DNA of 64,000 bases from Planctomycetota bacterium (GCA_046290465.1 JBKAGP010000001.1:2528001-2592000); one strand, 5' to 3'. Shown: positions 32,111 through 57,727, counted from the stretch's first letter. Translations and numbers: made by a program. The notes: generated by a model not told the origin, from the sequence alone.

Positions 32111-32175
32111 GTACGCATCGACGATAGGCAGGCCGCGCACGCCCGACCAGGGGCCGCGCGCGACCCGCGCGAGGC

Positions 32176-35229: not shown

Positions 35230-35379
35230 GGTTGGATCGGAGTCGTGGGGACACCAGCCATGCGGCGGCGCCGGCACGGGGCGGATCACGATTCCGTCGA
35301 AATCGCGATCCGGCCGCCGGCATTCGGCGGCGCTGCGCCGTGTCGCTGGCACCCGATGCGGGCTAACCTGCTCGGCCCG

Positions 35380-38300
35380 ATGTCTGCCGCCGATCCCGTC
35401 GCGAGCCTGCTGGAGGCGTTCGCCCGCCTCACCACGACGCGTAACCTGGTCGCCCAGGTGGAGCGCGGCGCCCGCGTCAAGGCCGGCGGCCTGTGGGGCG
35501 CGTCCGCGGCGCTGCCGCTGACCGTGCTGCGCCGCCGCCAGAACAAGGACCAGACGCTGCTGATCCTGACCGCCGACGACGTCGACAGCCTGCAGCTGCA
35601 GACCGACCTGCTGGCGTTCGGCACCGACAGCCACGTGCTGATCCGCGAAGAGGAGGACGACGACGGCGAGGTCGACGCGACCAGCCGCAGCGCCCGCCAG
35701 CGCACGATGCAGCAGTTTGCGGCGGACCGGGCCCCGCTGGTCGCCAGCATCGAGGCCATGCTGCAGCCGATCGCGACGCCGCGCGGCCTGCGCAAGTCCC
35801 AGCTCGAACTGGCGGTAGGGCAACGCCTCGACCGGACCCAGATCCTGCAGCGGGCCCAGGCCGCAGGCATGCGCAGCGTGCCGCTGGTGCTGGCGCCGGG
35901 CGAGTGCAGCGTGCGCGGCGACGTCGTCGACGTGTTTCCGATGGCGAGCGAACACGCGCTGCGGCTCGAGTTCTTCGACGACACGCTCGAGTCGATCCGC
36001 AGCTTCGACGCCGCTTCGCAGCGGACCACCGAGGTCCACGACCGCTATGCGCTGGCATTGGCCGAACAGGACGAGGGCGAGGTCGGCCCGGTATTGAAAC
36101 ACCTGACGCCGTCACAGACCTGGACGGTGCAATACGAGCCATTACGTATTGAGGAGCGGGTCGCCCGATTGACGACGTTCGACGGCAATCTGGCGCCGCG
36201 CTTGCAGCTGGTGCAGGACACGCTGCGGCCGTGCGCGCACGTCGACCTGTCGTCGCTGCCGAGCCACGAATACGACTACAAGGTGCTGTCGGCCGGCTCC
36301 GCGGTCGGATCGGGCGAAGCCGACCCCGGCGGCCGCCTGCGCAGCGTGCGCGGCGTGCAGGGCCGGGTGCTGCTGTTCTGCCGCAGCGACGACGAGCGCG
36401 AACGGCTGCGCGAGATCTTCGCGCACAAGGACGTCGACCTGCGCAAGGAACGCGTCGAGCTGCTCGACGGCGCGATCAGCAAGGGCTTCCGCATCCCGGA
36501 CCTCAAGACCACGGCGCTGTCCAACGTCGAGTTCGCCGGCGTCGCCCAGCAGCCGCGGATCCGCGAGCGCGCGGTGGTGCCGTCGCGCGCGATCCAGAGC
36601 TTCTTCGAGCTCGGCCCCGGCGACCTGGTCGTGCACGCCGTGCACGGCGTCGCGCGCTTCGAGGGCACCGAGCTGGTGCACCGCGGCGAGGGCACCGAGG
36701 AGCACCTGCGGCTGGTGTTCCAGGACGAGGTCAAGCTGCTGGTCCCGGCCAGCAAGATCCACCTGGTCCAGAAGTACGTCGGCAGCGGCGGCAAGGCGCC
36801 GCTCGACAAGCTCGGCGGCAAGGGCTTCCAGAAGCGCAAGGAACAGATCTCGGAGTCGCTGTTCGACCTGGCCGCCGAACTGCTCGAGGTGCAGAGCAAG
36901 CGCGAGCTGATCAAGCGACCGCCGTATCCGCACGACCAGCTCGAGCGCGACTTCCTCGACAGCTTTCCGTTCCGCGACACGCAGGACCAGGCGCGCGCGT
37001 GGTCGGAGATCCAGCGCGACCTCGAGAAGGACACGCCGATGGAGCGGCTGCTGTGCGGTGACGTCGGCTTCGGCAAGACCGAGGTCGCGCTGCGAACGGC
37101 CTTCCGCGTGGCGATCACCGGCCGCCAGGTGGCGGTGCTGGCGCCGACCACGGTGCTGGCCGAACAGCACGCGCGCACGTTCGCCAAGCGCTGCGAACCG
37201 TTCGGGCTGACCGTCGAGCTGCTGTCCCGCTACCGCAAGCCGAAGGAGCGACGCGAGGTCCAGCAGAAGCTCGCCGCGGGCCAGGTCGACGTCGTCATCG
37301 GCACCCACCTGCTGCTCGGCAAGGACGTCAGCTTCCACGACCTCGGCCTGGTCGTCGTCGACGAGGAGCAGCGCTTCGGCGTGCGCCAGAAGGAGAAGCT
37401 CAAGAAGCTGCGCGCCGGCGTCGACGTGCTGACGCTCAGCGCGACGCCGATCCCGCGCACGCTGCACGGCTCGCTGCTCGGCATCCGCGGCATCAGCACG
37501 CTCGACAACCCGCCGCCGGGCCGACAGGAGGTCGAGACGCGCGTGCTGTTCCGCGACGACAAGGTGCTGCGCGACGCCCTGCACCGCGAACTGTCGCGCG
37601 ACGGCCAGGTGTTCGTGCTGCACAACCGCATCGACGAGCTCGAACCGCTGGCCAACCGCCTGCGCGGCCTCGCGCCCGGCGCCAAGATCGCGATCGGCCA
37701 TGGCCAGATGACCGAGGTGCAGGTCGAGAAGACCGTGCGCGCGTTCGTGCGCGGCGAGTTCGACGTGCTGGTGTCGACGACGATCGTCGAGAACGGCATC
37801 GACATCGCACGCGCCAACACGATCCTGATCGACAAGGCCGACCACTTCGGTCTGGCCGAGCTGCACCAGCTGCGCGGCCGCGTCGGCCGCAGCAGCGAGA
37901 AGGCCTACTGCTACCTGCTGCTCGACCGCGACACGCCGCCGGGCCAGGAGGCCCGCCAGCGGTTGAAGGCGCTCGAGGAGTTCTCGCACCTGGGCGCAGG
38001 CTTCGCGATCGCGATGAAGGACCTCGAGATCCGCGGCGCCGGCAACCTGCTGGGCCCACAGCAGTCCGGCCATATCGCGTCGGTCGGATATGATATGTAT
38101 TGCCAGCTGCTGCGATCGGCCGTCGAGTCCGCCAAGGTCGACCGCCGCGCGATCGCGCAGGTGGTCGAGGTCGACGTCGACCTGCGCCTGCAGGCCTACC
38201 TGCCCGAGCAGTTCCTCAAGGACCCGCGTCAGCGCCTGGAGCTGCTGCGCGAGATGGACGAGGCAACCGACGACGAGCGCTTCCGCCAGCTCGAGGCGGA

Positions 38301-38598
38301 GCTCCGGGACCGCTACGGCAAGCTGCCCAAGCCCGTGACGACGCTGCTGCGGCAGTTCCGCCTCAAGCACGCCCTCATGCAGCTCGAGGTGCACAGCGTG
38401 CAGTGGGTCGAGGACGACCGGCTGGTCGTGCGGCACCCCGCCGGCGTGCCGCTCGGCGGCAGCTGGCTCGACCACTTCCGCGAGGTGCGCCCGGTCGAGG
38501 CCGGCAAGACGCACCTGATGCTGCCGCGGCCGCGGCGCGGCAAGCAGACGGCCGACAAGGTGCTCGAGCTGCTGCTGGGCGCGACCACCGGCAGCTAG
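35380..38598 (+). CDS. mfd: Transcription-repair coupling factor
   Basis: PGECSVRGDVVDVFP, GDLVVH..HGVARF (RID), CGDVGFGKTEV, DEEQRFG, LSATPIPRT, QLRGRVGR and DLEIRGAGNLLG. Confidence 0.97.
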   Translation: MSAADPVASLLEAFARLTTTRNLVAQVERGARVKAGGLWGASAALPLTVLRRRQNKDQTLLILTADDVDSLQLQTDLLAFGTDSHVLIREEEDDDGEVDATSRSARQRTMQQFAADRAPLVASIEAMLQPIATPRGLRKSQLELAVGQRLDRTQILQRAQAAGMRSVPLVLAPGECSVRGDVVDVFPMASEHALRLEFFDDTLESIRSFDAASQRTTEVHDRYALALAEQDEGEVGPVLKHLTPSQTWTVQYEPLRIEERVARLTTFDGNLAPRLQLVQDTLRPCAHVDLSSLPSHEYDYKVLSAGSAVGSGEADPGGRLRSVRGVQGRVLLFCRSDDERERLREIFAHKDVDLRKERVELLDGAISKGFRIPDLKTTALSNVEFAGVAQQPRIRERAVVPSRAIQSFFELGPGDLVVHAVHGVARFEGTELVHRGEGTEEHLRLVFQDEVKLLVPASKIHLVQKYVGSGGKAPLDKLGGKGFQKRKEQISESLFDLAAELLEVQSKRELIKRPPYPHDQLERDFLDSFPFRDTQDQARAWSEIQRDLEKDTPMERLLCGDVGFGKTEVALRTAFRVAITGRQVAVLAPTTVLAEQHARTFAKRCEPFGLTVELLSRYRKPKERREVQQKLAAGQVDVVIGTHLLLGKDVSFHDLGLVVVDEEQRFGVRQKEKLKKLRAGVDVLTLSATPIPRTLHGSLLGIRGISTLDNPPPGRQEVETRVLFRDDKVLRDALHRELSRDGQVFVLHNRIDELEPLANRLRGLAPGAKIAIGHGQMTEVQVEKTVRAFVRGEFDVLVSTTIVENGIDIARANTILIDKADHFGLAELHQLRGRVGRSSEKAYCYLLLDRDTPPGQEARQRLKALEEFSHLGAGFAIAMKDLEIRGAGNLLGPQQSGHIASVGYDMYCQLLRSAVESAKVDRRAIAQVVEVDVDLRLQAYLPEQFLKDPRQRLELLREMDEATDDERFRQLEAELRDRYGKLPKPVTTLLRQFRLKHALMQLEVHSVQWVEDDRLVVRHPAGVPLGGSWLDHFREVRPVEAGKTHLMLPRPRRGKQTADKVLELLLGATTGS

Positions 38599-38887: not shown

Positions 38888-40675
38888 ATGCAGAGCCTCC
38901 GCTCGCTATTCGTCCCCGCCGTGCTGGCGACCTGGATGCTGAACGCGTCCGGTCCGATCGCGCAGGAGCCTGGAAGCCAGGCGCCCGAGCGTTCGCAGCC
39001 GCGGACCGAGTCCCCCCGCCCGTCCAACCAGGACCCGCGCCCCGCGGGTCGCCGCCGCGCCGGCGGACGCCGCCGCGGGCTGATCGTGATCGAAGCCGGC
39101 ACGGTGCACCCGGTCAGCGGACCGCCGATCGAGAACGGCGTCGTCGTCATCCGCGGCGACCGCATCCTCGCGGTCGGACAACAGGGCGACCTGCAGCTGC
39201 CGCCGAACACGACGGTGCACAAGTTCCCCGATGGCCATGTCTACCCCGGCCTGATCGACGCCTCGACCGACGCGTTCACCGACTCCGGCCTGCAGCGCGA
39301 CGGCAGCCTCAACGGCGGCAGCGAGCTCGCCGACGGCCTGGTGTGGACCGGCGACCGCGACGACCAGCTGGTCCGCCACGGCGTGACCACGGCCTACGTG
39401 AACGTTCGCACCGGCGCGCAGGTGCGCGGCCAGGGCGCGATCGTGCGCCCGCACGCCAGCGGCTTCGAGCTGTGGGAGGACAAGGAGCAGGCCGCGCTGC
39501 AGCTGCGCATGGCGGCCGGCACCGGCAACTCGCACCCGCTGCAGCGGCAGGCCCAGCTGCAGGCGGCGGGCCGCCTGTTCGACGGCCTCGAGGAGTTCCG
39601 CGACGCGCAGGAGAAGTTCGAGAAGGATCTCGAGAAGTACAACGAGGAGTTCGAGAAGTACCTCGACCACCACAAGAAGAAGAACGGCAAGGAAGACAAG
39701 CCGAAGGCCGACCCGAAGGCCGACCCCAAGCCCGACGGCGAGGCAGCCAAGAAGGAGGGCGAGAAGCCCTCGGAGGCGCGTCCCGGACGGCGTCGACCCG
39801 GCGGTCGCCGCCGCCCGCCGCAAGGTGGCGGGGACGGCAACGGCGAGGGCGGCCAGCAGCCTGAGGAGCTGACGGCCGAGGCCGTCGAGAAGGCGCTCGC
39901 CACGATGATGGCGCTGGTCGGTGAGCCGCAGCCGCAGGCCGACGCGCAGGATCCGCGCCGCGGCCGGCGCCCGAGCGGCGCGCCGCAGGGTCGTTCGCAG
40001 GGTCGCCCGCAGGGCACCCCCGCCGCCGCCAAGGCGGGCGGGGACGACAAGAAGAAGGACGACGGCCCCAAGCGCCCGAAGTACCCGAAGAAGCCCAAGG
40101 CGGACCCGCAGAAGGACGCGCTCGCCAAGGTCGTCGACGGCGTGCTGCCGCTGCGCATCGAGGCGCACCGCGTCGAGGAGCTGCGCGCCGCGCTGCGCCT
40201 GCAGCGCGACAACGACGTGCCGCTGATCGTGCTCGAGCAGGCCTACGGTGCCGGCTCGATCGCCGACGAGATCGCCGCCCAGGGCGCCACCGTCGTGCTG
40301 ACCAACGTGCTGCCGAGCGCGCTCGGCGTGCCGGGCGACAAGCGCAACCCGTTCGCGAAGTTCGACCTGACCGAGCTGCCCGGCCAGCTGCACGCGGCCG
40401 GCGTGCCGTTCGCGATCGCGAGCGGCCGCGCGCGCCTCGCGTCGGTGCTGCCGATGATGGGTGCCGCCGCCGTCGGCGCGGGCCTGTCGCCCGAGGCCGC
40501 GCTGCGCGCACTGACCCTCACCCCCGCGGAGATCCTCGGCGTCGCCGAGGACACCGGCTCCCTGTCGCGCAACAAGTTCGCCGACGTGCTGGTGACCAGC
40601 GGCCCGCTGTTCGCGAGCGACAGCAAGGTGCTGCTGGTGATGTCGAAGGGCCGCACCGAGTACGAGAGCAAGTAA
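38888..40675 (+). CDS. Exported amidohydrolase-family protein 1 (HxH absent; long Lys/Pro/Arg-rich insert)
   Basis: Signal-like N-terminus; GTVHPVSG..IENG, VYPGLIDASTD, GVTT, ALT..PA.ILG...GSL...KFAD. Confidence 0.85.
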   Translation: MQSLRSLFVPAVLATWMLNASGPIAQEPGSQAPERSQPRTESPRPSNQDPRPAGRRRAGGRRRGLIVIEAGTVHPVSGPPIENGVVVIRGDRILAVGQQGDLQLPPNTTVHKFPDGHVYPGLIDASTDAFTDSGLQRDGSLNGGSELADGLVWTGDRDDQLVRHGVTTAYVNVRTGAQVRGQGAIVRPHASGFELWEDKEQAALQLRMAAGTGNSHPLQRQAQLQAAGRLFDGLEEFRDAQEKFEKDLEKYNEEFEKYLDHHKKKNGKEDKPKADPKADPKPDGEAAKKEGEKPSEARPGRRRPGGRRRPPQGGGDGNGEGGQQPEELTAEAVEKALATMMALVGEPQPQADAQDPRRGRRPSGAPQGRSQGRPQGTPAAAKAGGDDKKKDDGPKRPKYPKKPKADPQKDALAKVVDGVLPLRIEAHRVEELRAALRLQRDNDVPLIVLEQAYGAGSIADEIAAQGATVVLTNVLPSALGVPGDKRNPFAKFDLTELPGQLHAAGVPFAIASGRARLASVLPMMGAAAVGAGLSPEAALRALTLTPAEILGVAEDTGSLSRNKFADVLVTSGPLFASDSKVLLVMSKGRTEYESK

Positions 40676-40697
40676 CCGCGGGAGCCAGGAGAACAAC

Positions 40698-41873
40698 ATG
40701 CACACCTTCACCCAGCACCTTCTGCAGCGGAGCCTCGCCGGCGCCTGCCTGCTCGCCGCAGCGGCGGCGCCCGCGTGCGCCCAGGACCTGCTGATCAAGG
40801 CCGGCCGCATCGTGGTCGCCCCCGGCACCGTCCTGACCGACAGCGCGCTGCTGGTCCGCGACGGCAAGATCGCCTACGTCGGCAACGACATCCCCGCCGA
40901 AGCCCGCGGCCGCGCGCGCACCGTCGACTACGGCGACGCGACGGTCTCGCCGGGCTTCGTGCTCGCCGCGACGACGCTCGGCAGCGACGCCGACCTGGCC
41001 GAAGGCGCGCTCGCCTTCACGCCGGACCTCAAGGTCGCCGAGGCGTTCGATCCGTGGAGCGAGAACCTCGAGCGGCTGGCCCCCTACGGCGTGACCTCGT
41101 TCGGCCTGACGCCGTCGCCGCGCAACGTCGCCGGCGGCATCGGCGTGCTCGCCAAGCCGGGCAAGGAGCGCGGCCGCGTGATGGCAGCCGAGGCGTTCGT
41201 CGGCTTCTCGCTGACGCGCGCGGCGCGCAGCCAGGAACGGGACCCGACCTCGCTGATGGGCGCGCGCGAGATGCTGCGCGACGCGTTCGACACGGCCCGC
41301 ATCGGCGTCGAGATCGGCCCGGACCTCGCGGTGCTGCGCCAGGTCATGGCCGGCTCGCGCCGCGCCGTCGTGCACGCCGACACGTTCGCCGAGCTCAACG
41401 CCGCGCTGTCGCTGGGCAAGGAGTTCAACTTCGCGCCGGTCATCGTCGGCGGCCGTGAGTCCGCCAAGGTGCTCGCCAAGCTGGCCGAACGCGGCGCCGG
41501 CGTGGTGCTGCCGACGCTGACCCCGACGGCGCGCATCGCCGACCTCGAACTGCCGGCTGCGCTGGCCGAGGCCGGCGTGCCGTTCTGCTTCGCCGGTCGC
41601 CCCGACCAGCTGCGCGTCTCGGCGGCGCTGGCGGTCCGCAACGGGCTGTCGCGCGAGCACGCCCACGCGGCGCTGACCCGCACGCCGGCGACCCTGATGG
41701 GCCAGCAGGCCGCGGTCGGCGCGCTGCGCCAGAACTGCAGCGCCGACTTCGTCGTCTTCGCCGGCGACCTGCTCGACCTCAGCGCGCGCCACGTCGCGAC
41801 CTGGGTCGACGGCGTCCGCGTCAGCGGCGACGCCCCCGCCAGCAACCACACGAACACGAAGGCAAGCCGATGA
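40698..41873 (+). CDS. Exported amidohydrolase-family protein 2 (HxH absent)
   Basis: RBS AGGAG; signal ...APACAQ; VRDGKIAYVG, VSPGFVLAATT, GVTS and VGAL...ADFVV. Confidence 0.85.
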   Translation: MHTFTQHLLQRSLAGACLLAAAAAPACAQDLLIKAGRIVVAPGTVLTDSALLVRDGKIAYVGNDIPAEARGRARTVDYGDATVSPGFVLAATTLGSDADLAEGALAFTPDLKVAEAFDPWSENLERLAPYGVTSFGLTPSPRNVAGGIGVLAKPGKERGRVMAAEAFVGFSLTRAARSQERDPTSLMGAREMLRDAFDTARIGVEIGPDLAVLRQVMAGSRRAVVHADTFAELNAALSLGKEFNFAPVIVGGRESAKVLAKLAERGAGVVLPTLTPTARIADLELPAALAEAGVPFCFAGRPDQLRVSAALAVRNGLSREHAHAALTRTPATLMGQQAAVGALRQNCSADFVVFAGDLLDLSARHVATWVDGVRVSGDAPASNHTNTKASR

Positions 41874-43108
41874 TCCGCAAGCTGCTCACCTGCACGTTGT
41901 CCCTCGCGTTCGCGTCCGCCGCGTTCGCGCAGCAGGACGTCACCGCCTACACCAACGCGACCATCCTTCCGGGCGGCAAGCCCGCGCTGCGCAAGGCGAC
42001 GCTGGTCGTCGCCGGCGGCAAGGTCGTCGCGATCGGCAGCAGCGCCGACATCACCGTGCCCGAGGGCGCGGCGGTCGTCGACTGCAACGGCAAGACGATC
42101 ACGCCGGGCCTGATCGACGCCTCGTTCGTGGCCGGCCTCAGCGGCCAGGACGCCAACGAACAGAGCGAAGAGGTCACCCCGCACCTGCGCATCCTCGACA
42201 GCCTCGACCCCGAGGACCCGATGTTCCGCCGCGCGCGGCGCGACGGCGTCACCACGGCGCACGTCATGCCGGGCACGCAGAACGTCATCGGCGGCCTCGG
42301 CTGCGTCATCAAGACGTTCGGGGACGACCCGGACGCCATGCTCGTCAAGCAGGACGCCAGCATGCGCATCGTGATGGGCGCCGAACCGTCGGCGCGCAAC
42401 CGCGCGATCCGCGGCGGCCGCGTCAACTCGATCTACTACCGCCGCCCGACCACCCGCATGGGGGTCGTCTGGGCCGTTCGCAGCGCCTTCTTCGACGCCC
42501 AGGAGGCGATGAACAAGACGCAGGGTGCGCCCGACCAGGGCCCGCCGTCGCCCGGCATCGAGGTGCTGACGCGCGTGCTGCAGGGCAAGCTGACCGCGGT
42601 CACCACCGCGCGCAGCGAACAGGACGTGCGCACCGCGCTGCGGATTGCCGATGAGTTCGGCTACCAGACCGTCATCGACGAGGCGCAGGACGCCTACATG
42701 GTCGCCGACGAACTGGCCGCGAAGAAGGCCGTGGTCATGCTCGGCGCGCCGAGCGCGACCTCGGTCGGCGGCAGCGGCGCGCGCGACGGCGCCGCGCCGC
42801 GCAGCGGCACCGTGCGCACGCTCGCCGAGAAGGGCGTCAAGTTCGTCATCACGACGGGCACCAACACCCAGCACCTGCCGCTGATCCGCGAGGCGATGTT
42901 CGCCGCGCGCAACGGTCTCGGCCCGCAACAAGCACTCGACGCGATCACCATCGAGCCGGCCAGGCTGCTCGGCATCGACGATCGCATCGGCAGCCTCGCC
43001 AACGGCAAGGACGCCGACTTCGTCATCTGGTCCCAACATCCCCTCGACCCGGCCGCCGTCGCCGAGTCTGTCCACATCGACGGCAAGCCCGTGTCTCGAA
43101 TCCGATGA
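41870..43108 (+). CDS. Exported amidohydrolase-family protein 3 (HxH absent)
   Basis: ATGA overlap; signal ...SAAFAQ; GKTITPGLIDASFV, GVTT, PTTRMG and IGSL.NGKDAD. Confidence 0.88.
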   Translation: MIRKLLTCTLSLAFASAAFAQQDVTAYTNATILPGGKPALRKATLVVAGGKVVAIGSSADITVPEGAAVVDCNGKTITPGLIDASFVAGLSGQDANEQSEEVTPHLRILDSLDPEDPMFRRARRDGVTTAHVMPGTQNVIGGLGCVIKTFGDDPDAMLVKQDASMRIVMGAEPSARNRAIRGGRVNSIYYRRPTTRMGVVWAVRSAFFDAQEAMNKTQGAPDQGPPSPGIEVLTRVLQGKLTAVTTARSEQDVRTALRIADEFGYQTVIDEAQDAYMVADELAAKKAVVMLGAPSATSVGGSGARDGAAPRSGTVRTLAEKGVKFVITTGTNTQHLPLIREAMFAARNGLGPQQALDAITIEPARLLGIDDRIGSLANGKDADFVIWSQHPLDPAAVAESVHIDGKPVSRIR

Positions 43109-44412
43109 ACCTCTCCCTCCTGCGAATCGCGGTCGTCAGCGCGACGATCGCCCTCCCCGCCATCAGTCAGGACCTCGTCGCCGTCAAGGCGAAGACGATC
43201 CACACCATCACCGGCCCGAGCGTCACGGACGGAGTCATCCTGCTGCAGAACGGCCGCATCAAGGCGATCGGCAAGCAGAGCGACGTCGAGATCCCGTGGT
43301 CGGCCAAGGTCATCGATGCCAGCGACAAGGTCGTGATGCCGACGTGGGTGCTCGCGCACAGCAACGGCGGCATGCGCGGCAGCAACGAGTCGATGCAGAA
43401 CGTCCCGTGGCTGACGGTCGCCGACGCGCTCGATCCGGGCTCGACCTACTTCGAGGGCATGCGCCGCAACGGCGTCGGCACGATCCACGTGCTGCCCGGC
43501 AACAACACGCTGATGGCCGGCAGCGGCATGGTCGTGCGACCCGCCGGCCGCACCGTCGAGGACATGACGGTCGCCGCCAACACCGGCATGAAGCTGTCGC
43601 TGCTCGCCAGCGGCGGCAGCCGCCTGCAGAAGATCCGCGAGATGCGTCGCGCGATCGCCGACATCCGCGAGTACCTCGCCGACTACAACCGCCAGAAGGA
43701 CGAGTTCGAGAAGGAGAAGGCCGCTGGCGCGATCGCCGACGACAAGGAGTGGGAGAAGGAGATCGACCGCAAGAAGCAGGCGGCCGTCGACCTGATCGAG
43801 AAGAAGCTCAAGGGCTGGCTCTACGTGCCGAGCTTCGCCGAGCTCGGCGAAGCGCTGCGCATGGGCCAAGAGCTCGACCTGACGCTGGTGCTCGGCAGCA
43901 ACCTCGACGAGGCGCTGCCGATGCTGCGCCGCCTGAAGAGCCCGGTCGTGCTCGACGCCAACCTCGAGTACTACGAGACCGACCCGGAGACGCGTGAGGA
44001 GGAGCAGTTCTGCTCGGCCAAGATGCTGGCCGACGCCGGCGTGCCGTTCGCGCTGTCGCTGGGTTCGGGCCCGAGCGGCAACCCGTGGTGGCAACTCGGC
44101 ACCTGCGTGCGCAACGGCATCAGCAAGCAGCAGGCGCTCGAGGCGCTGACCACCGTGCCGGCCAAGATGCTCGGCCTCGACGACCAGGTCGGCTCGCTGA
44201 GCGAAGGCAAGCTGGGCAACCTGCAGATCCTGACCGGCGATCCGATGGCCGCGACCACCTGGGTCGAGACCGTCATCCTCGAAGGCGAGGTCGTCTACGA
44301 GCGCAGCAAGGACCCGCGTCTGCAGTACCTGTTCGAGGCCGCCGAGAAGGCCTCGGAGCCGCAGCAGCCGAAGAAGGCCGGCGACAACTCGAACGAGGGC
44401 GAGGGCAAGTGA
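43105..44412 (+). CDS. Exported amidohydrolase-family protein 4 (single His)
   Basis: ATGA overlap; signal ...LPAISQ; VMPTWVLAHSN and VGSLSEGKLGN. Confidence 0.85.
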   Translation: MNLSLLRIAVVSATIALPAISQDLVAVKAKTIHTITGPSVTDGVILLQNGRIKAIGKQSDVEIPWSAKVIDASDKVVMPTWVLAHSNGGMRGSNESMQNVPWLTVADALDPGSTYFEGMRRNGVGTIHVLPGNNTLMAGSGMVVRPAGRTVEDMTVAANTGMKLSLLASGGSRLQKIREMRRAIADIREYLADYNRQKDEFEKEKAAGAIADDKEWEKEIDRKKQAAVDLIEKKLKGWLYVPSFAELGEALRMGQELDLTLVLGSNLDEALPMLRRLKSPVVLDANLEYYETDPETREEEQFCSAKMLADAGVPFALSLGSGPSGNPWWQLGTCVRNGISKQQALEALTTVPAKMLGLDDQVGSLSEGKLGNLQILTGDPMAATTWVETVILEGEVVYERSKDPRLQYLFEAAEKASEPQQPKKAGDNSNEGEGK

Positions 44413-47255
44413 TGCAACGTTCCTCCTCCCCCACCCGAGGCGCCGTGCTCGCGGCCGCGCTCGGTGCAGCCTTGCTGGCTGCGCCGCTCGCCGCCCAGCA
44501 GGCGCCGAGCGGCACGTTCGCGGTGCGCTGCGGCACGCTGCTCGTCGGTGACGGCCAGCAGGCCATGACCGACGCGTGGCTGGTCGTGCGCAACGGCAAG
44601 ATCGAGAGCGTCTCGCAGGCCGCGCCGCCGGCCGACCTGCCGGTCGTCGACGCCAGCGGCAAGGTCGTGATGCCGGGCATCGTCGCGGTCGACACCGACC
44701 TCGCGCCGGTTCGCGACAGCGAGTACCAGGTGACCCCCGACGCGTTCGCCGTCGATGCGTTCGACTTCGAGCGTTCGTGGCGGCCCGCCCTCGAGGGCGG
44801 CATCACGTCGGCCTACCTGTCGCCCGGCCGCAGCCGCCTGGTCTCCGGCCAGGGCGCGGTCGTCAAGCTCGCCGGCACCGACCTGGTCGAGCGCGTGCTG
44901 ACCGACGAGGCGTGCCTGCGCGTCAACTTCGGTCCGGCCGCGCTGGCCGCGCCGCGCGTGTTCGAACCGAACGCGCACCCGACCGACGACGAGCCGCTGG
45001 AGCCGGCGCGCATCCAGACGCCGACGTCGCGCATCAGCCTGCTCGCCGAGCTGCGCGCCCTGTTCGCGTCGGCGACCGACAAGGACCAGGGCCCCGGTGG
45101 CCAGGGCCCGGCCGAGCACCTCTACGACGAGCGCGCGCTGCGCATGGTCGTCGAGGGCAAGATGCCGATGCGGGCCTCGGCGCAGGACGCCGGCGACATC
45201 CGCCGCGCGCTGCAGCTGCAGAAGGAGCTGGGCTTCAAGATCGTGCTCGAGAACCCGGACGAGATCGAGCGCGTCGCGGCCACCGCGGCCGCGCAGAAGG
45301 CGATGGCGACGTTCCGCATGCCGACGATGTTCGGCAAGTCGGTGCCCGGTGGCGAGGATCGCTACCAGGACGTCAAGGAGCCGAACTTCGACGCGCCGGC
45401 GAAGGCCGCCGCCGCCGGCATGACCGTCGGCATCAGCCCGGCCAGCGGCGTGCCGCTGCGCGACTACCTGATGTCGGTCGCGATCGCCGTGCGCCACGGC
45501 CTGCCGGAGTCGACCGCGCTGCGCGCCGTCGGCCTCGACGCCGCCAAGGTGCTCGGCGTCGACGGCCGCGTCGGCTCGCTGCAGAAGGGCAAGGACGCCG
45601 ACTTCGTCGTGCTCAGCGGCGACCCGCTCGCCGTCGGCACGATGGTCGAGGCGACCTGGATCGACGGCGTGCGCCGGTTCGCGCGCGAGACCGACAGCCA
45701 GGTGCTGGCGATCCGCACCCACCGCGTGCACGACGGCACCGGCCGGGTGCTGCGCAACGGCGTCGTGCTGATCCAGAACGGCCGCATCAAGGCGGTCGGC
45801 GAGGACCTGGCGATCCCGTACGGCGCCGAGGTCCTCGAGCTCGACGACGGCGTCGCGACGCCCGGCTTCGTCGACGTGTTCTCGCACCTCGGCCTCGCCG
45901 GCGAAGGCACCGGCGTGCCGAACGGCAGCCCGAACCAGCGCCTGCACGACATCCTCGCGTTCGACGATCCGATGTTCGAACCGGCGCTGCGCGAGGGCAT
46001 CACGTCGCTGCTCGTCGGCGGCAAGGACGGCGGCCTGACGTCGGGGCGCCTCGCCGCGATCAAGACCGGCGCCCGTGACCGCGACGGCATGCTGGTGCGC
46101 GAGATCGCCGGCCAGCGCATGGTGTTCGACGCCATCGGCCCGAACGCCACCAAGCCGCTCGCCGACCAGATCGCGCGTGCGCGCAAGTACGCCGACGCGT
46201 GGCAGAAGTACGAGAAGGCGCTGGCCGAGTGGCGCGCCGGCGTCGAGGGCACGCCCGCTCCCGAACCGGAGAAGGAGGAGCCGAAGCCGAAGGAGGGCGC
46301 CGAGAAGGCCGACCCGCTGACCGGCACCTGGGAAGCGGAGATCGTGATCCAGGAGCGCTTCCGCCTGCAGATCAAGCTGGACCTGACGCTCAAGGGCACC
46401 AAGGTCACCGGCACGATCTCGCTCGGCATGGGGCGCGGCGGTCGCGGCCCGCGCCCGCAGGAGATCGAGGGCACGTTCGAGAACGGCACGCTCAAGATCG
46501 AGTTCAGCGGTGCGATGGGCTCGGCGACGCTCGAGGCCACCGTCGAAGGGGACACGATGACCGGCAAGCTGAGCCTCGGCCCGATGGGCACGCAGGACGT
46601 GACCGGCACGCGCACCAGCAAGAAGCCCGGCGCCGCCGCCAAGGCCGCGCCGCCCCGCCGCAAGAAGAAGGGCGAGGACGACGGCCGGCCGAAGCCGCCG
46701 AAGACCGACGAGAACCTCGAGCCGCTGCGCGCGATCCTCGCCGGCAAGGCGACGCTGGTCGTGCGCACCAACCGCGCCCCGGCCATCCAGGGCGTGGTCG
46801 CGCTGCTCGAGAAGGAGAAGATCAGCTACGCCTTGACCGGCGCGGACGATCTGCTCGACGACGGCTCGCTGCTCGGCGGCAAGAAGCCGGCGATCGTCGT
46901 CGGCCCGGAGGTCGTCGTCGAGGACGACGGCGATCTGGTCAACGTCGCGTCGACGTTCGCCGACCACGACCTGCCGATCATGTTCGGCACCGGCAACTGC
47001 GCGGGCACGCGCTTCCTGCCGATGCACGCCGCCTACGCGGTGCGCTACGGCCTCAGCCCGCAGGACGCCCTGCAGGCGCTGACGCTGTGGCCCGCCAAGG
47101 CCTTCCACCTCGACGAGCGCATCGGTTCGCTCGAGAAGGGCAAGGACGCCGACCTCGTGGTGTTCTCGGGCAACCCGTTCGAGCCCACGAGCACCGTCTT
47201 GCTCGTCGTCTGCAACGGCCGCGTGGTCGTCGACAACCGGGAGCAAGCGCAATGA
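44412..47255 (+). CDS. Exported tandem two-domain amidohydrolase-family protein 5 with inserted beta-rich domain
   Basis: Signal ...APLAAQ. Domain 1: VMPGIVAVDTD...GSLQKGKDAD. Domain 2: ATPGFVDVFSH...GSLEKGKDAD. Start is ATG 44412 or GTG 44409. Confidence 0.88.
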   Translation: MQRSSSPTRGAVLAAALGAALLAAPLAAQQAPSGTFAVRCGTLLVGDGQQAMTDAWLVVRNGKIESVSQAAPPADLPVVDASGKVVMPGIVAVDTDLAPVRDSEYQVTPDAFAVDAFDFERSWRPALEGGITSAYLSPGRSRLVSGQGAVVKLAGTDLVERVLTDEACLRVNFGPAALAAPRVFEPNAHPTDDEPLEPARIQTPTSRISLLAELRALFASATDKDQGPGGQGPAEHLYDERALRMVVEGKMPMRASAQDAGDIRRALQLQKELGFKIVLENPDEIERVAATAAAQKAMATFRMPTMFGKSVPGGEDRYQDVKEPNFDAPAKAAAAGMTVGISPASGVPLRDYLMSVAIAVRHGLPESTALRAVGLDAAKVLGVDGRVGSLQKGKDADFVVLSGDPLAVGTMVEATWIDGVRRFARETDSQVLAIRTHRVHDGTGRVLRNGVVLIQNGRIKAVGEDLAIPYGAEVLELDDGVATPGFVDVFSHLGLAGEGTGVPNGSPNQRLHDILAFDDPMFEPALREGITSLLVGGKDGGLTSGRLAAIKTGARDRDGMLVREIAGQRMVFDAIGPNATKPLADQIARARKYADAWQKYEKALAEWRAGVEGTPAPEPEKEEPKPKEGAEKADPLTGTWEAEIVIQERFRLQIKLDLTLKGTKVTGTISLGMGRGGRGPRPQEIEGTFENGTLKIEFSGAMGSATLEATVEGDTMTGKLSLGPMGTQDVTGTRTSKKPGAAAKAAPPRRKKKGEDDGRPKPPKTDENLEPLRAILAGKATLVVRTNRAPAIQGVVALLEKEKISYALTGADDLLDDGSLLGGKKPAIVVGPEVVVEDDGDLVNVASTFADHDLPIMFGTGNCAGTRFLPMHAAYAVRYGLSPQDALQALTLWPAKAFHLDERIGSLEKGKDADLVVFSGNPFEPTSTVLLVVCNGRVVVDNREQAQ

Positions 47256-48664
47256 TGATGTTCCGTCCCACGATCGCGGCGCTCGCCGCGTGCTCGCTGC
47301 TGGCGACCGTCGCCGTGGCCCAGGAAGCCGCGGCGAAGGCCCCGGCCGCCGCCGAGCCGGCACCTGCCAAGCAGGAGCCGAAGCCGTTCCAGACCTGGCA
47401 CCCGCGCCGGCCCAAGGAGGAGAAGGACTACGTGGTCGCCAAGTGGGGACCGCGCGGCCTGCCGAGCCCCGGCTACGCGTTCTACGCCGCCAAGATCCTG
47501 CCGGTGACGTCGGCGCCGATCATCGACGGCGTCATCATCACCAAGAACGGCGTCATCGAGGCGATCGGCAAGGCGTCGGAGCTGACGGTGCCGAGCGGCT
47601 ACGAGAAGGTCGACTGCGGCGACGCGGTGATCTGCCCCGGCTTCGTCGAGACGCACTGCCACATCGCGAGCCCGAGCTTCGACCTCAACGACACGGTCCA
47701 CCCGACCAACCCGGAGTTCCGCACGCTCGACCTGATCAGCATGGAGCACGATCAGATCCGGGTGTCGCGCGCCGGCGGCGTCTCGACCGCGCTCTACATC
47801 CCGGGCTCCGGCTCGAACATGGGCGGCTTCGGCACGCTGACCAAGACCTGGGGCAACTCGCCGGAGGAGGCGCTGGTGCGCTTCCCGGGCAGCCTCAAGA
47901 TCGCGCAGGCCGGCAACCCGGAGCGCGGCTCGGGCGACCTCGGGTCGGGCATGATGGGCATGTCGGAGGGCATCCGCATGACCCTGCTCGACGGCAAGGA
48001 GTACTGGGAGCAGATGCTCGCCTTCGAAGCCGGCAAGGGACCGAAGCCGGAGTTCAACGCGACGCTCGAACTGATCAGCGGCCTGTTCCGCCACGAGTTC
48101 CCGCTCAGCGTGCACACGCAGATCTACCAGGTCGTGCTGCAGACGCTGCAGGAGCTGCGCCTCGAGCTCGGGCTGTGGACCGTCGTCGTGCACGGCACGT
48201 TCGACGGCTACCGCCTCAGCGAGGACCTGCTGATGGCCGGCATGCCGGTCTCCGGCGGCCCGCGCGCGTACCACTACGATCGCGCCACCGGCGCCTTCAA
48301 CGGCGTGCTCGCCAACTACTCGCTCGGCGGCAAGATGGGCTGGCGTGAGCCGGTCATGGGCCTCGGCCGCGACGGCGTCGGCGTCAACACCGACTCGCCG
48401 GTGGTCGCCCAGGAACAGCTGCAGCTGCAGGCCGCCATGGGCGTTCGCCTCGGCTGGCCGCACGAGTGGGCGCTGCGCGGCCTGACCATCAACAACGCGG
48501 TGTTCTTCGGCATCGACCACCGCGTCGGCTCGCTGGAAGTCGGCAAGGACGCCGACCTCGGCGTGTGGAGCGGCGACCCGATCGACCCGCGCTGCTACGT
48601 CGAGCTGATGGTGATCAACGGCACCATCTGCTACCGCCGCAACCCCGACCGTCCGGACTGGTAG
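47252..48664 (+). CDS. Exported amidohydrolase-family protein 6, catalytically complete
   Basis: Signal ...VAVAQ; PGFVETHCH, SLKIAQAGNP, SVHTQ, VVHGTFD, NTDSP and GSLEVGKDAD. Confidence 0.9.
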   Translation: MMMFRPTIAALAACSLLATVAVAQEAAAKAPAAAEPAPAKQEPKPFQTWHPRRPKEEKDYVVAKWGPRGLPSPGYAFYAAKILPVTSAPIIDGVIITKNGVIEAIGKASELTVPSGYEKVDCGDAVICPGFVETHCHIASPSFDLNDTVHPTNPEFRTLDLISMEHDQIRVSRAGGVSTALYIPGSGSNMGGFGTLTKTWGNSPEEALVRFPGSLKIAQAGNPERGSGDLGSGMMGMSEGIRMTLLDGKEYWEQMLAFEAGKGPKPEFNATLELISGLFRHEFPLSVHTQIYQVVLQTLQELRLELGLWTVVVHGTFDGYRLSEDLLMAGMPVSGGPRAYHYDRATGAFNGVLANYSLGGKMGWREPVMGLGRDGVGVNTDSPVVAQEQLQLQAAMGVRLGWPHEWALRGLTINNAVFFGIDHRVGSLEVGKDADLGVWSGDPIDPRCYVELMVINGTICYRRNPDRPDW

Positions 48665-48693
48665 TCCGGGCGGTCCGCCCCCCACACACCGCT

Positions 48694-49947
48694 GTGCGAC
48701 CGACCTCCACGACCCTGATGCTGCTGTGCGCCCTGGCTTCGGCCAGCGCGGCTGCACGCGCACAGGCGGAGGCGGGCACGGCCCCGTCGGCGAACCGCGC
48801 GACCGCGCACCTCGCCGCCCGCATCCTTCCCTGTGACCGCGCGCCGATCACCGACGGCGTGCTGATCGAACGCGGCGGCAAGATCGTCGCGATCGGTCCG
48901 CGCCGGCAGACCACCGTTCCGCCCGGAGCCACCGTCGTCGACCACGGCGCGAGCTGGCTGACCCCGGGCTTCGTCGACCTGCACCACCACGTCAGCAGCG
49001 GCGGCGGCGACATCAACGACATGACCGAGCCGTTGAACGCGCAGATGCGCACGTTCGACACGGTCAAGCCGTCGACCGACGAGATCCGTCGGACCGCCGC
49101 GGGCGGCGTCACCACGACGCTGTTCATCCCGGGCAGCGGCACGTTCATCTCGGGGTTCGGCTGCCTGCTCAAGATGCGCGGCGGCGGCACGCTCGAGGCG
49201 ATGACGATCCAGGCGATCGGCGCCATGAAGGTCGCGCAGGGCTTCAACCCGGAGCGCTACAGCGGCGACCTCGGCCAGACCCGCATGGGCAGCAGCGAAC
49301 TGCTGATCAAGCAGCTGGACGCCGGCCGCGACTACGCCGCGGCGTGGCGCGCGTTCGACGCCGGCGACGGCCCGAAGCCGGAGTTCGACCCGGCGCTCGA
49401 ACAGCTGCGGCTGGTGTTCGACAAGAAAGTGCCGGTGCTGATCCACACCGCCGGCATGCGCGACTGCCTGTCAACCTCGCGCATGTTCCAGGACCGTTAC
49501 GACGTGCGCATGATCCTGTCGCACGGTTCGTTCGACGGCTGGCTCGCCGCCGAACCGCTGGCGAAGAAGCAGACGCCGCTCAATCTCGGACCGCGCATGT
49601 ACCAGCTCGACCGCTACGGCCGCATGCAGGGCATGTGCCAGGCGTTCTACGACGCCGGCTGCCACAACCTGTCGATCAACACCGACGCGCCGGTGATCCC
49701 GGCCGAGGAGCTGCAGCTGCAGGCCGCGATGGCCGCGCGGCTCGGCCTGCCCTACCAGGCCGCGCTGGCGGCCGTCACCATCATCCCGGCGCGCCAGATC
49801 GGTCTCGACGACCGCGTCGGCTCGCTCACGGTCGGCAAGGACGCCGACTTCCAGGTCACCGCGGGAGACCCCCTCGACCCCCGCGTGGCCCCGCTCGAGG
49901 TCTACATCGAAGGCCAACTGATCCACCGATTCGGAGACGTGCGATAG
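48694..49947 (+). CDS. Exported amidohydrolase-family protein 7, catalytically complete
   Basis: Signal ...AARAQ; PGFVDLHHH, AMKVAQGFNP, LIHTAG, LSHGSFD, NTDAP and GSLTVGKDAD. Start is GTG 48694 or ATG 48718. Confidence 0.9.
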   Translation: MRPTSTTLMLLCALASASAAARAQAEAGTAPSANRATAHLAARILPCDRAPITDGVLIERGGKIVAIGPRRQTTVPPGATVVDHGASWLTPGFVDLHHHVSSGGGDINDMTEPLNAQMRTFDTVKPSTDEIRRTAAGGVTTTLFIPGSGTFISGFGCLLKMRGGGTLEAMTIQAIGAMKVAQGFNPERYSGDLGQTRMGSSELLIKQLDAGRDYAAAWRAFDAGDGPKPEFDPALEQLRLVFDKKVPVLIHTAGMRDCLSTSRMFQDRYDVRMILSHGSFDGWLAAEPLAKKQTPLNLGPRMYQLDRYGRMQGMCQAFYDAGCHNLSINTDAPVIPAEELQLQAAMAARLGLPYQAALAAVTIIPARQIGLDDRVGSLTVGKDADFQVTAGDPLDPRVAPLEVYIEGQLIHRFGDVR

Positions 49948-49948
49948 C

Positions 49949-51382
49949 ATGCGAAACCACTTCTTGAGCCTCTCGGCCGCCGCGCTGCTGTGCGTCGGCG
50001 CCGTCACCGCCCAGAACGCGCGACCGGTCGCGTTCACCAACGCGCGCATCCACACGGTCAGCGGCAAGGTCGTCGAGAACGGCACCCTGGTCGTGCGCAA
50101 CGGCAAGATCGAAGCCGTCGGCAAGGACGTCACGGTGCCCGCCGGCGCCAAGGTCGTCGACGCCAGCGGCAAGACGATCATGCCGGGCCTGGTCAGCGCC
50201 TGGTCGCGCGCCGGCCTCAACCCGCCGCGCTCGCGCAGCAACACGCCAACGCGCGGCAGCCGCCGTTTCACCCGTTCGTTCCGCTCGTCGTCGAGCAACG
50301 GCCGCACGTCGAACAGCGCCGCGACCCGCGTCGTCGACGGCCTCTACGTGCGCCAGCCGATCTTCCACGACCTGCTCGAGGTCGGCGTCACGTCGCTGGC
50401 GCTGAACCCGAGCGGCGCCGGCTTCCCGGGCCTCGGCGCGGTGCTCAACCCGGCCGGCAAGACCCGCGGCGAGCTGACGCAGGACGACGAGGCGTTCGTG
50501 CAGATCGGCATGCAGCGCAACAACTCGGCCAAGAAGCTGCTCAAGGACACGTTCGAGAAGGCCAAGAAGGTCGTCGAGGAGCGCGAGAAGCCGCCGGCAC
50601 CGCCGAAGAAGGAAGAGCCCAAGAAGGAGGAGGCCAAGAAGCCCGAGGCCAAGCCCGGCGAGAAGCCCGCCGAGAACAAGACCGAGGGCAAGCAGCCGCC
50701 GAAGAAGGACGAGCCGAAGCCCAAGGGCGACGAGCCCAAGCAGGATCCGAAGAAGGACCCGAAGCAGGACCCCAAGAAGGCGACGCCGAAGCCCGCCGCC
50801 AAGCCGAAGCCCAAGCCGAAGGACCCCAACCTCGAGGTGCTGGCCGACCTGCTGCAGGGCAAGCGCCGCGCGATCGTGCAGATCGACTCGGCCGCCGACC
50901 TGCTGCACTGGCAGCACGCGGTCGGCGACGACCTGAAGTTCCCGCGCATGGTCGCGGTGCAGCGTCACGACACCCGCTCCGGGACGATCGACATGGTCGT
51001 CGACCACCTCAAGAAGTGGGAGTGCTCGGTGCTGCTGCCGCCGTCGCTGTCGACCAAGCCCGGCTCGTCGTACCTGATCCACCCTGCCAAGGAACTGCAC
51101 GACGCCGGCATCGAGGTCGGCTTCGCGATCGGCGAGTCGACCAACAGCGTGCGCGCGCTGTTCTACAACCTGATGGAACTGGTGCGCGCCGGCCTGCCGG
51201 CCGACGTCGCGATCAAGGCCGTCACGCAGGTGCCGGCCAAGGCGCTCGGCATCGACGAGCGCGTCGGCACCCTCGAGGAGGGCAAGGACGCCGACCTGCT
51301 GGTGTTCGACGGCGATCCGCTGTCGCCGACCGGCAAGCTCGAGCAGGTCTGGCTGCGCGGCCAGCAGGTCGAGAAGAACTAG
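49949..51382 (+). CDS. Exported amidohydrolase-family protein 8 (HxH absent; Lys/Pro/Glu-rich insert)
   Basis: Signal ...AVTAQ; FTNARIHTVSG, IMPGLVSAWSR and VGTLEEGKDAD. Confidence 0.88.
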   Translation: MRNHFLSLSAAALLCVGAVTAQNARPVAFTNARIHTVSGKVVENGTLVVRNGKIEAVGKDVTVPAGAKVVDASGKTIMPGLVSAWSRAGLNPPRSRSNTPTRGSRRFTRSFRSSSSNGRTSNSAATRVVDGLYVRQPIFHDLLEVGVTSLALNPSGAGFPGLGAVLNPAGKTRGELTQDDEAFVQIGMQRNNSAKKLLKDTFEKAKKVVEEREKPPAPPKKEEPKKEEAKKPEAKPGEKPAENKTEGKQPPKKDEPKPKGDEPKQDPKKDPKQDPKKATPKPAAKPKPKPKDPNLEVLADLLQGKRRAIVQIDSAADLLHWQHAVGDDLKFPRMVAVQRHDTRSGTIDMVVDHLKKWECSVLLPPSLSTKPGSSYLIHPAKELHDAGIEVGFAIGESTNSVRALFYNLMELVRAGLPADVAIKAVTQVPAKALGIDERVGTLEEGKDADLLVFDGDPLSPTGKLEQVWLRGQQVEKN

Positions 51383-51420
51383 GCCGCGCCCACAACCCCA
51401 CCGCACACCCCGAACCCAAC

Positions 51421-52788
51421 ATGCGCACGTCCACCCTGTTCGTCCTGTCGCTCGCGCTGCTCAGCGCGCTCGACCTCCCGGCCCAGGGCCGCGGCCGCCG
51501 CGGCCGCCGCCCGACCCAGCAGCCGCAGCAGGCTCCGGCTCCGGAGGCCCCGAAGAAGGAAGAGAAGAAGGAGCCGAAGAGCTACCTCGCGATCGTCGGC
51601 GGCGACGTCTACATCGGCACCGGCCAGCGCCTGACCGGCGCGACCGTGCTGGTCGCCGACGACAAGATCGAGAAGGTCGGCCACAACCTCGAACTGCCGG
51701 AAGGCACCAAGGTCATCGACGCCAAGGGCAAGTGCGTCAGCCCTGGCTTCGTGATCGTGGAGGGCTCGGGCATGGGCGCCGGCTTCAGCGGCCCCTACAA
51801 GGACACGGTCAACCCGTTCGACCAGTCGATCAAGCAGGGCCTGGCCGCCGGCATCACGTCGTTCCTGGTCGGCTCGACGTCGTCGCGCGGACGCGTCGGC
51901 GGCAGCAACGCCGTCATCAAGACGCACTACGGCGACATCGACGGCATGGTGCTCAGCGAGAACAGCGTGTGCGGCATCTCGGTGCCGCTGCAGCGCACCC
52001 AGAAGGAGCAGCTGAAGACGCAGATCCAGCAGTGCCGCGACTACCTGAAGGCGCTCGAGGACTACCCGGCCCAGAAGGCCAAGGACGCGAAGGCCAAGGC
52101 GCCGCAGGCGCCGCGCGGTGCCGACAAGGTGCTGGCGGTGCTGCAGGGCAAGGCGAAGCTGTGGGTCGCCTTCGGCGGCGGCCGCTTCAACCCGTTCGGC
52201 GGCGGCGTCAGCGGCGGCTCGTCCGACGTCGACAAGATCCGCGAGGCGCTCGAAGTCTCGCGCATGTTCGGCCAGGGCGTCGTGATCCAGAAGCCGGTCA
52301 GCGCCTGGCTGATCCCGGACGAGATCGCCAACACCGGGTCGAGCGTCATCTGGAGCCCGCGCACGCGGATTCCGGCGGACCCGAAGGACCCCGACCGCAC
52401 CGGCAGCAACCTCGCCCAGGCGGCGATCCTGGCCAAGGCTGGCGTGCCGGTCGCCGTGACGTGCCCGAGCGGCCGGTTCGGTGGGTCCGGTGTCGGCACC
52501 AACGGCATCCTCGGACAGGACCTCAACACCCCGCACGTCGACGCGGCCTACGCCGTGCGCGGCGGACTCGACAACCGTAAGGCTCTACGAACGCTGACGT
52601 TGGACGCGGCCGAGATGATGGGCGTCGGCGACCGGATCGGCTCGCTCGAGGCCGGCAAGGACGCCGACATCTTGATTCTGGACGGCGATCCGCTGCACTA
52701 TAGCACGTTCGTGACCACGGCCGTCGTCAACGGCAAGGTCGTTTACGAGAAGGGCAACGAAGCCCTCTTCCGACACATCGAGCGGTAA
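51421..52788 (+). CDS. Exported amidohydrolase-family protein 9 (HxH absent)
   Basis: Signal ...DLPAQ; GKCVSPGFVIVEGS, GITS and IGSLEAGKDAD. Confidence 0.88.
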   Translation: MRTSTLFVLSLALLSALDLPAQGRGRRGRRPTQQPQQAPAPEAPKKEEKKEPKSYLAIVGGDVYIGTGQRLTGATVLVADDKIEKVGHNLELPEGTKVIDAKGKCVSPGFVIVEGSGMGAGFSGPYKDTVNPFDQSIKQGLAAGITSFLVGSTSSRGRVGGSNAVIKTHYGDIDGMVLSENSVCGISVPLQRTQKEQLKTQIQQCRDYLKALEDYPAQKAKDAKAKAPQAPRGADKVLAVLQGKAKLWVAFGGGRFNPFGGGVSGGSSDVDKIREALEVSRMFGQGVVIQKPVSAWLIPDEIANTGSSVIWSPRTRIPADPKDPDRTGSNLAQAAILAKAGVPVAVTCPSGRFGGSGVGTNGILGQDLNTPHVDAAYAVRGGLDNRKALRTLTLDAAEMMGVGDRIGSLEAGKDADILILDGDPLHYSTFVTTAVVNGKVVYEKGNEALFRHIER

Positions 52789-52920: not shown

Positions 52921-53337
52921 ATGAGCGTAGAAAGCCTGAAGGAACTGGACGACTTCTTCCGCAGCATGCGGCAGGCGTTCAACAGCCGCGACCTCAAGAC
53001 CTTCCGCTCGCACTTCTGGACCGACAAGCGCTTCCACAACCTCGACGCCTCCGGCCGCCGCGACCGCGGCTGGGGTGCCTTCGAGGAGGTGCTCGACCAG
53101 GAGTTCCGCTACCTCGAGTCGGTGCGCATGGAACTCAAGGACCTGGACTGTCAGGTCTTCGAAGACCAGTTCGGCACGGCCGTCGCGACCTGGAAGCTGA
53201 CCCAGGTCGACCCCGAGGGTCGCAACCACGAGCAGAACGGACGCTGCACGTTCTCCCTGTGCAGGTTCAGCGACGACTGGAAGATCGTCGCGCAGCACTT
53301 CTCGCCGCTGTCGGCAGAAGAAGCCGCCGCCGAGTGA
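52921..53337 (+). CDS. NTF2-like/SnoaL-like fold protein
   Basis: 138 aa; AFNSRD...RGW, GRCTF and the C-terminal WKIVAQHFS pattern. Confidence 0.75.
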
Positions 53338-53383
53338 TTCTCGGTGGCCCACCCGCCGGCCACGCCCCAAGCCGGACTCCGGG

Positions 53384-53392
53384 TGCTACATT
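53384..53392 (+). promoter_or_regulatory. Candidate extended -10 promoter (TGcTACATT) for icmF
   Basis: TGn-TAnnnT lying ~20-35 nt upstream of the candidate starts. Confidence 0.4.
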
Positions 53393-53410
53393 GACGGCCC
53401 TGGTCCTCAT

Positions 53411-57613: not shown

Positions 57614-57727
57614 GATGCTCCGGGAGACACGGAAGCATACATCATGCCAGCCGCTGCCGCGTATGCCTCGTCGCAACGAGGCCACCGCCGGTCGGATCGC
57701 GCGGCCAACGGCCGGTGCGAACGGCGA

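Follow-up and report, generated by a model that had tools for sequence, protein, structure and literature searches.

In the 20S proteasome beta ring, the RNA exosome core and CCT, a symmetric homo-oligomer has given way to a hetero-oligomer of fixed subunit order in which the paralogs are mostly or wholly inactive; these complexes are eukaryotic and cytosolic, and their folds are unrelated to that of the amidohydrolases. To our knowledge, it is chiefly in eukaryotes and plastids that fixed-order hetero-oligomers consisting mostly of dead paralogs have been described. Here we analyse an operon encoding ten amidohydrolase domains, eight of them degenerate at the metal site, at positions 38,888 to 52,788 of a 64,000-nucleotide stretch of Planctomycetota bacterium DNA (GCA_046290465.1 JBKAGP010000001.1:2528001-2592000; the whole stretch is referred to as the window). 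This operon is likely to be a bacterial variant of the pseudoenzyme-rich hetero-oligomers.

Two described systems are particularly close in kind. According to the available part of its description (PMC6508832), the chloroplast ClpPR core resembles the operon in that a homo-oligomeric hydrolase plan comprises many paralogs, some of them non-catalytic yet retained, and differs in having a serine protease fold and 10 of 14 sites active (catalytic ClpP1 and ClpP3-6, non-catalytic ClpR1-4), against a predicted two of ten here. Also unlike ClpPR, the domains analysed here belong to one bacterial operon, are predicted to be exported, and have a proposed assembly. The metformin hydrolase MfmAB, in the accessible portion of its report (PMC10927577), likewise joins a metal-free paralogous subunit to a binuclear metallohydrolase of bacterial origin, in a ratio of two MfmB to one MfmA, and the metal-free subunit may occlude the active-site entrance; it has an arginase fold, two genes and a known substrate, whereas the present operon has eight different degenerate paralogs.

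The ten domains are encoded by nine plus-strand genes, gene 5 being two-domain, with successive intergenic gaps of 22, -4, -4, -1, -4, 29, 1 and 38 bases. In the amidohydrolase superfamily, the HxH motif, the bridging strand-4 Lys, the strand-5 His, the strand-6 His and the strand-8 Asp make up the binuclear centre and the catalytic base. All ten strand-1 motifs that the initial annotation had read from the sequence (DASTD to IVEGS) were found in the translations and aligned in one column block, and its claim that only two of the ten domains are catalytically intact was borne out: genes 6 and 7 alone carry all six metal-site residues (HxH, the Lys of SLKIA or AMKVA, the His of SVHT or LIHT, the His of HGT or HGS, and the Asp of NTD), and the strand-8 Asp is missing from all eight other domains. 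Degenerate positions are designated p1, p2, p3, p4, p5a, p5b, p8 and p9 and intact ones A, with '=' marking a fusion. The features of the operon are as follows.

p1, 38888..40675, plus strand: degenerate (DASTD), with a long charged insertion after barrel strand 4 and an N-terminal signal-like segment
p2, 40698..41873, plus strand: degenerate in the window (LAATT), strand-5 His kept
p3, 41870..43108, plus strand: degenerate (DASFV), with near-invariant Arg, Glu and Asn residues
p4, 43105..44412, plus strand: degenerate (LAHSN), first His and Lys kept
p5a=p5b (gene 5), 44412..47255, plus strand: two degenerate domains, AVDTD at about 44412-45689 and DVFSH at about 45690-47252
insert within p5b, 46323..46619, plus strand: predicted all-beta, residues 638-736 of gene 5
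A1 (gene 6), 47252..48664, plus strand: intact binuclear site (ETHCH, LKIAQ, VHTQ, HGTFD, NTDSP)
A2 (gene 7), 48694..49947, plus strand: second intact type (DLHHH), start GTG at 48694 or ATG at 48718
p8, 49949..51382, plus strand: degenerate (SAWSR), with a Lys/Pro-rich insertion
p9, 51421..52788, plus strand: degenerate (IVEGS)

By alignment, the eight degenerate domains of the window keep zero to two of the six ligands each: p1, p3, p5a, p8 and p9 have none, and the single ligands left are the strand-5 His of p2, the first His and the Lys of p4, and the second His of p5b. The beta insert of p5b had no significant match in the PDB or the Atlas, no family was found for it, and it lacks a counterpart in several lineages. 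A promoter scan returned one weak site, and a scan for terminator-like sites on the plus strand returned none.

The operon proteins are members of the amidohydrolase superfamily, the fold of which is a TIM barrel flanked by a beta-sandwich, and belong to a group resembling PDB 3OOQ, an amidohydrolase of Thermotoga maritima MSB8 that was the top solved match by both sequence and fold. All nine proteins exceeded the curated cut-off of Pfam Amidohydro_1 (PF01979) and/or Amidohydro_3 (PF07969), and none of them reached the cut-off of an NCBIfam model, the best scores being 104.6 bits (gene 5, with gene 6 at 48.1 and gene 7 at 55.7) against the 500 bits of the Xaa-Pro dipeptidase model NF051886 and 88.4 against the 298 bits of the imidazolonepropionase HutI model TIGR01224; databases name the homologs just 'imidazolonepropionase-like' or 'amidohydrolase family'. 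The sequence match of 3OOQ to the degenerate gene 3 (p3; E 1.4e-53) was stronger than that to the intact gene 7 (3.2e-43), and Foldseek with the p5a=p5b model again gave 3OOQ as best hit, with a template-modelling (TM) score of 0.84 over the target. In the available part of a supplement 3OOQ is tabulated as D5 with an oligomeric count of 10 (PMC9556563), and in the accessible portion of a benchmark it is classed, with ten chains, as dihedral (10.64898/2026.08.06.736029); the CombFold supplement files that were readable held no match to it, and the literature search found no function for it. The intact genes share with 3OOQ the HxH, Lys, His, His and Asp, and its ten chains compare with ten domains here. 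Unlike the operon, 3OOQ is a structural-genomics entry with one gene and ten identical intact chains, whereas the operon has nine or ten distinct domains, eight of them degenerate, with signal-like N-termini and insertions. Next-best after 3OOQ were the COG1228-type peptidases, namely the L-Arg carboxypeptidase Cc2672 (3MTW), Xaa-Pro dipeptidases (2QS8, 3FEQ) and the ochratoxin hydrolase ADH3 (8IHQ), which share the binuclear amidohydrolase fold and differ in that identity was just 14-19% in the fold search.

For the comparison of architecture we used 146 regions, none longer than 20 kb, of genomes other than this one: 89 belong to the window's own class and 57 to other classes in the phylum. 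They were supplemented by 28 loci from a genome scan, partly of the same genomes, and 80 from metagenomes; as the regions were picked by a strong gene 6 or p4 match, they inform on architecture and not on prevalence. Of the 146 loci, 126 had the full order p1 p2 p3 p4 p5a=p5b A(n) p8 p9, namely 80/89 in the own class and 46/57 in the others. Since the labelling profiles were built from the own class alone, the matching order in other classes is an independent check. Most incomplete loci run into contig ends. Two split operons (L086 and L253) end after p5b, with A and p9 on another contig of the same genomes (G269 and G329); in a third locus (L110) p9 is located elsewhere, and in a fourth (L116) a weak 125-amino-acid fragment labelled p9 lies ahead of p1. 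In a tree of 436 own-class domains, from which 9 of 445 were dropped as fragments, the nine position classes each formed a clade of their own, with support of 0.78-1.0.

The distribution of ligands among 131 non-redundant complete operons is far from chance. The first intact gene had six of six residues in 131/131, six degenerate positions scored 0-3 throughout, one operon had a score of 4 at p4, and five had a score of 5 at p2. In a wider set of 179 loci, p2 had all six ligands in three (L071, L080 and L095, from two families) and five in three more, for which reason p2 was probably active ancestrally; the three intact genes constitute natural intermediates of pseudo-enzyme formation.

That the degenerate genes are retained and are not decaying, as the initial annotation had argued from their long intact reading frames, is supported by the constancy of gene order, an almost universal presence in one copy, and purifying selection. 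Pairwise ratios of nonsynonymous to synonymous substitution (dN/dS; Nei-Gojobori, with the window's genes compared to 14 close loci, of which 7-13 could be used per domain) had medians of 0.29-0.41 for the degenerate domains, resembling the 0.26-0.29 of the intact ones; the highest value was 0.77, so that 99/99 lay below 0.8, and the figures are likely to be overestimates, since high GC content would compress dS. Over 39 loci, A1 had a mean identity of 0.56 and the degenerate classes had one of 0.36-0.47; the latter are under constraint but change more rapidly. Each degenerate class has its own set of near-invariant polar residues. Apart from A1 and A2, which are 42% identical, the paralogs of the window are 19-34% identical pairwise. 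Non-catalytic paralogs under purifying selection thus stand next to a catalytic one, as in systems of the ClpPR and MfmAB kind.

The fixed part of the operon is the eight degenerate domains and the variable part the intact genes. Complete own-class loci have 1, 2, 3, 4 or 5 intact-type genes in 18, 39, 18, 4 and 1 cases, respectively, the second copy being broken in three of the 39 two-gene loci, and 44 of the 46 complete loci from other classes have one, so that an operon holds 9-13 domains and that of the window ten. The count of two intact domains in ten given earlier is therefore right for the window and specific to its lineage, the core being eight degenerate domains and one intact one. 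Even in close relatives gene 7 is missing or broken (L001, L002, L023, L044 and L045); in the first three gene 6 is 87-91% identical and gene 7 is lacking. A tree of 238 intact domains separated the A1 type from the A2 type. In the own class there is at most one A2 per operon, always last, additional copies being A1, and A1+A2 is the commonest state (38/86 operons); outside the own class the A1/A2 assignment depends on weak deep nodes.

A hydrophobic signal-like segment, called by a heuristic and not by a signal-peptide predictor, precedes 85-98% of the unfused domains (105/118 to 129/131) and occurs at the internal p5a/p5b junction in 4/131, suggesting that the chains are likely exported, each via Sec. 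The p5a and p5b domains are fused wherever a locus holds both; the other fusions are p1=p2 in 12 loci, p1=p2=p3 in four and p8=p9 in one (L079), and the five fusions inspected had linkers of 12-55 amino acids and no internal signal peptide. Fusions join degenerate domains only, and for co-assembly of catalytic with non-catalytic chains, as in ClpPR and MfmAB, they speak neither for nor against; no genuine fusion to A was found among 255 loci. An apparent p4=p5a fusion (L097) was an artefact of a run of N, and an apparent A=p8 fusion (L036) of a broken A2 in frame.

That the operon products form one complex, whatever its stoichiometry, we consider probable. Whether this complex is a hetero-decamer on the D5 plan of 3OOQ, with eight scaffold and two catalytic positions, we regard as an even question. 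Pointing to it, besides the decameric 3OOQ, are fusions confined to degenerate domains and split operons that have kept those parts that were checked. The number ten is suggested by 3OOQ itself, by the sum of eight degenerate domains and two intact types, and by the equal sum of eight and two copies of a single A. In such a decamer the exported domains would assemble around two catalytic slots, the eight degenerate subunits being a fixed scaffold; the slots would be taken by A1 and A2 in the window, by two copies of one A where there is a single intact gene, and by interchangeable A1 duplicates where there are three to five. One simple arrangement would pair neighbours along the operon into five dimers, [p1 p2] [p3 p4] [p5a p5b] [A A] [p8 p9]. 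An A present twice could not fuse one-to-one, so the absence of fusions to A fits, weakly. What preserves the degenerate subunits would then be interfaces specific to their positions, and they may in addition bind ligand or limit access. Of the roles suggested in the initial annotation for the inactive subunits, that of scaffold is the best reading, helped by the decameric homolog and the natural fusions, and is still put forward as a proposal. More tentatively, at somewhat under an even chance in our estimation, the assembly may be a bacterial hetero-decamer, fully asymmetric, in which each ancestral D5 position is taken by a different paralog, with eight dead subunits forming a substrate-selecting cage and two exchangeable catalytic cassettes, serving as a core envelope machine of several planctomycete classes.

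A number of observations weigh against the decamer. Most classes have nine distinct domains and not ten, so that A would be required twice, and in 3/179 loci p2 is fully intact. The p1=p2=p3 fusion spans a boundary between the proposed dimers. A phylum-wide tree of just six loci had an unresolved backbone and did not recover p1, p2 and p3 as fully monophyletic, and the trees gave no support to the four sister pairs of degenerate classes expected from a C2 intermediate. Predicted models of p5a=p5b had both domains folded (predicted local distance difference test, pLDDT, 87.7 and 92.2), with predicted TM (pTM) scores of 0.60 and 0.69 that are intermediate for the domain arrangement; since by our arithmetic two unplaced halves would give about 0.54, the modelled packing of p5a against p5b is only partly confident. 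Finally, two smaller units of the family, a pair and a three-domain one, occur in this genome; as ten is not a multiple of three, decamers need not be the rule throughout the family. The pair consists of an intact and a degenerate protein (L075, G000:C1:3462336-3464848) and the trio of a degenerate domain fused to an intact one, with a separate degenerate protein after it (L076, G000:C1:5651113-5655470); both units fall outside the nine position classes. A coevolution analysis that counts on neither side, being underpowered with just 131 operons (effective number about 115), recovered pooled intra-domain contacts and no inter-domain signal, random sets scoring as high as gene-adjacent pairs in 291/300 draws and as high as fused pairs in 259/300.

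In an alternative, the nine classes would form one complex that is not a decamer but either a nine-domain unit or a dimer of that unit, 18 domains in all, each unit having one catalytic slot and being built, for example, as trios [p1 p2 p3] [p4 p5a p5b] [A p8 p9]. The ancestral-looking operon outside the own class has exactly nine domains (44/46 complete loci), all four kinds of fusion lie within trios, the operon breaks between p5b and A in G269 and G329, and this genome also has a three-domain unit of the family. We nevertheless consider this arrangement rather unlikely: with four of eight junctions fused, their all lying inside trios has by our arithmetic a chance of 15/70, the sole solved relative is D5, and two old intact types exist. 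Less likely still are degenerate proteins that act on their own in the periplasm, as ligand binders or chaperone-like factors, or that form several small heterodimers, in either case co-regulated with a homo-oligomeric A. For independent binders one would expect variable number and order, but no lineage examined drops single degenerate genes, while the intact gene 7 is lost freely, and no conserved transporter adjoins the operon; these facts outweigh, in our view, the near-invariant polar residues peculiar to each degenerate class, the lack of fusions between A and degenerate domains, and the simple active/inactive pairs of the same genome, all of which would speak for such proteins.

It is improbable, too, that several degenerate domains are catalytic, whether through a modified metal site or through chemistry that needs no metal, and make up a hydrolase pathway of several activities. 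The conservation of the first His (114/131) and Lys (118/131) in p4 and of the second His in p5b (72/131), like the intact p2 of three loci, is what such enzymes would be expected to show; however, no invariant alternative set of His, Asp or Glu was found at the C-terminal face of the barrel in p1, p5a, p8 and p9, five domains of the window have none of the six residues, and the degenerate classes have a lower mean identity than A1. We give next to no credence to a recent tandem expansion with decaying copies. Tandem paralogs with lost catalytic residues might look like one, but the low identity of the paralogs to each other (A1 to A2 excepted), the order conserved across classes, the near-universality of p4 and the dN/dS values, all 99 of them under 0.8, refute it.

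As to function, A is inferred to carry out periplasmic amide hydrolysis because its next-best characterised relatives hydrolyse amides of peptides and N-acyl amino acids; within the hetero-decamer, it would cleave an amide bond of one of these types at the binuclear metal site. The near-universal presence of the operon in the own class, where 103/104 high-quality genomes carry it, some of them near 2 Mb, suggests a core envelope function so far unrecognised and annotated only as 'imidazolonepropionase-like'. If the hetero-decamer is real, bacteria would have in it an exported counterpart, encoded by a single operon, of the subunit diversification seen in the proteasome and ClpPR, and it would be a bacterial case contained in one 14-kb unit and accompanied by natural intermediates: the one-gene decamer 3OOQ, the same-genome pair and trio, the lineages with intact p2, and operons with one to five catalytic genes. 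The origin of such complexes, by neutral entrenchment or by new function, would thereby become testable. A literature search of titles and abstract openings, with most subscription papers outside its scope, found no description of the family or operon, and 'cd01309' returned, among the matches listed, Cochrane review numbers only.

The p4 profile matched 216 of 221 own-class genomes at E <=1e-90, with a single match in 215, and p4 was found in 103 of the 104 high-quality genomes just mentioned; one genome (G039) has neither gene 6 nor p4. Across the phylum, 103 of 401 genomes had p4 at E <=1.1e-105, the next matches following after a gap at 9.5e-76, and 102 had p9, three of these probably being generic family matches and the p9 search having applied a stricter first look than the p4 search. 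Both were present in 95 of the 110 genomes having either, and neither in 291/401. In family f9, whose genomes (e.g. G574 and G553) measure 1.8-2.5 Mb, p4 is retained in 29/29. A 2.6-kb contig titled Luminiphilus (L003) has a gene 6 ortholog of 93% identity, probably through a binning error and not transfer. Outside Planctomycetota, one look-alike Atlas cluster dominated by Pseudomonadota was listed and is taken as a lead only.

No neighbour gene of the operon was conserved across classes; the flanks are lineage-specific and give no clue to the substrate. Downstream in the window (52921-56833) are a SnoaL-like gene and then a fused B12-binding/MeaB/methylmalonyl-CoA mutase gene, which recur downstream in 33 and 31 loci, respectively, of the own class only. 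Directly upstream is mfd (TRCF; about 35386-38598, plus strand), a neighbour in just a few loci. On the minus strand, 56921-60970 and 61001-63121 hold an extracytoplasmic function (ECF) sigma factor, a 1080-amino-acid forkhead-associated (FHA) protein with a weak match to the C-terminal domain of type VI secretion system FHA proteins, and an S15 X-Pro dipeptidyl-peptidase. Farther upstream, also on the minus strand, lie what we take to be a secreted protein with ELWxxDGT-type repeats (about 32176-35300), an ECF-like sigma factor (31526-32118) and a Ser/Thr kinase with TPR-like repeats (28779-31529).

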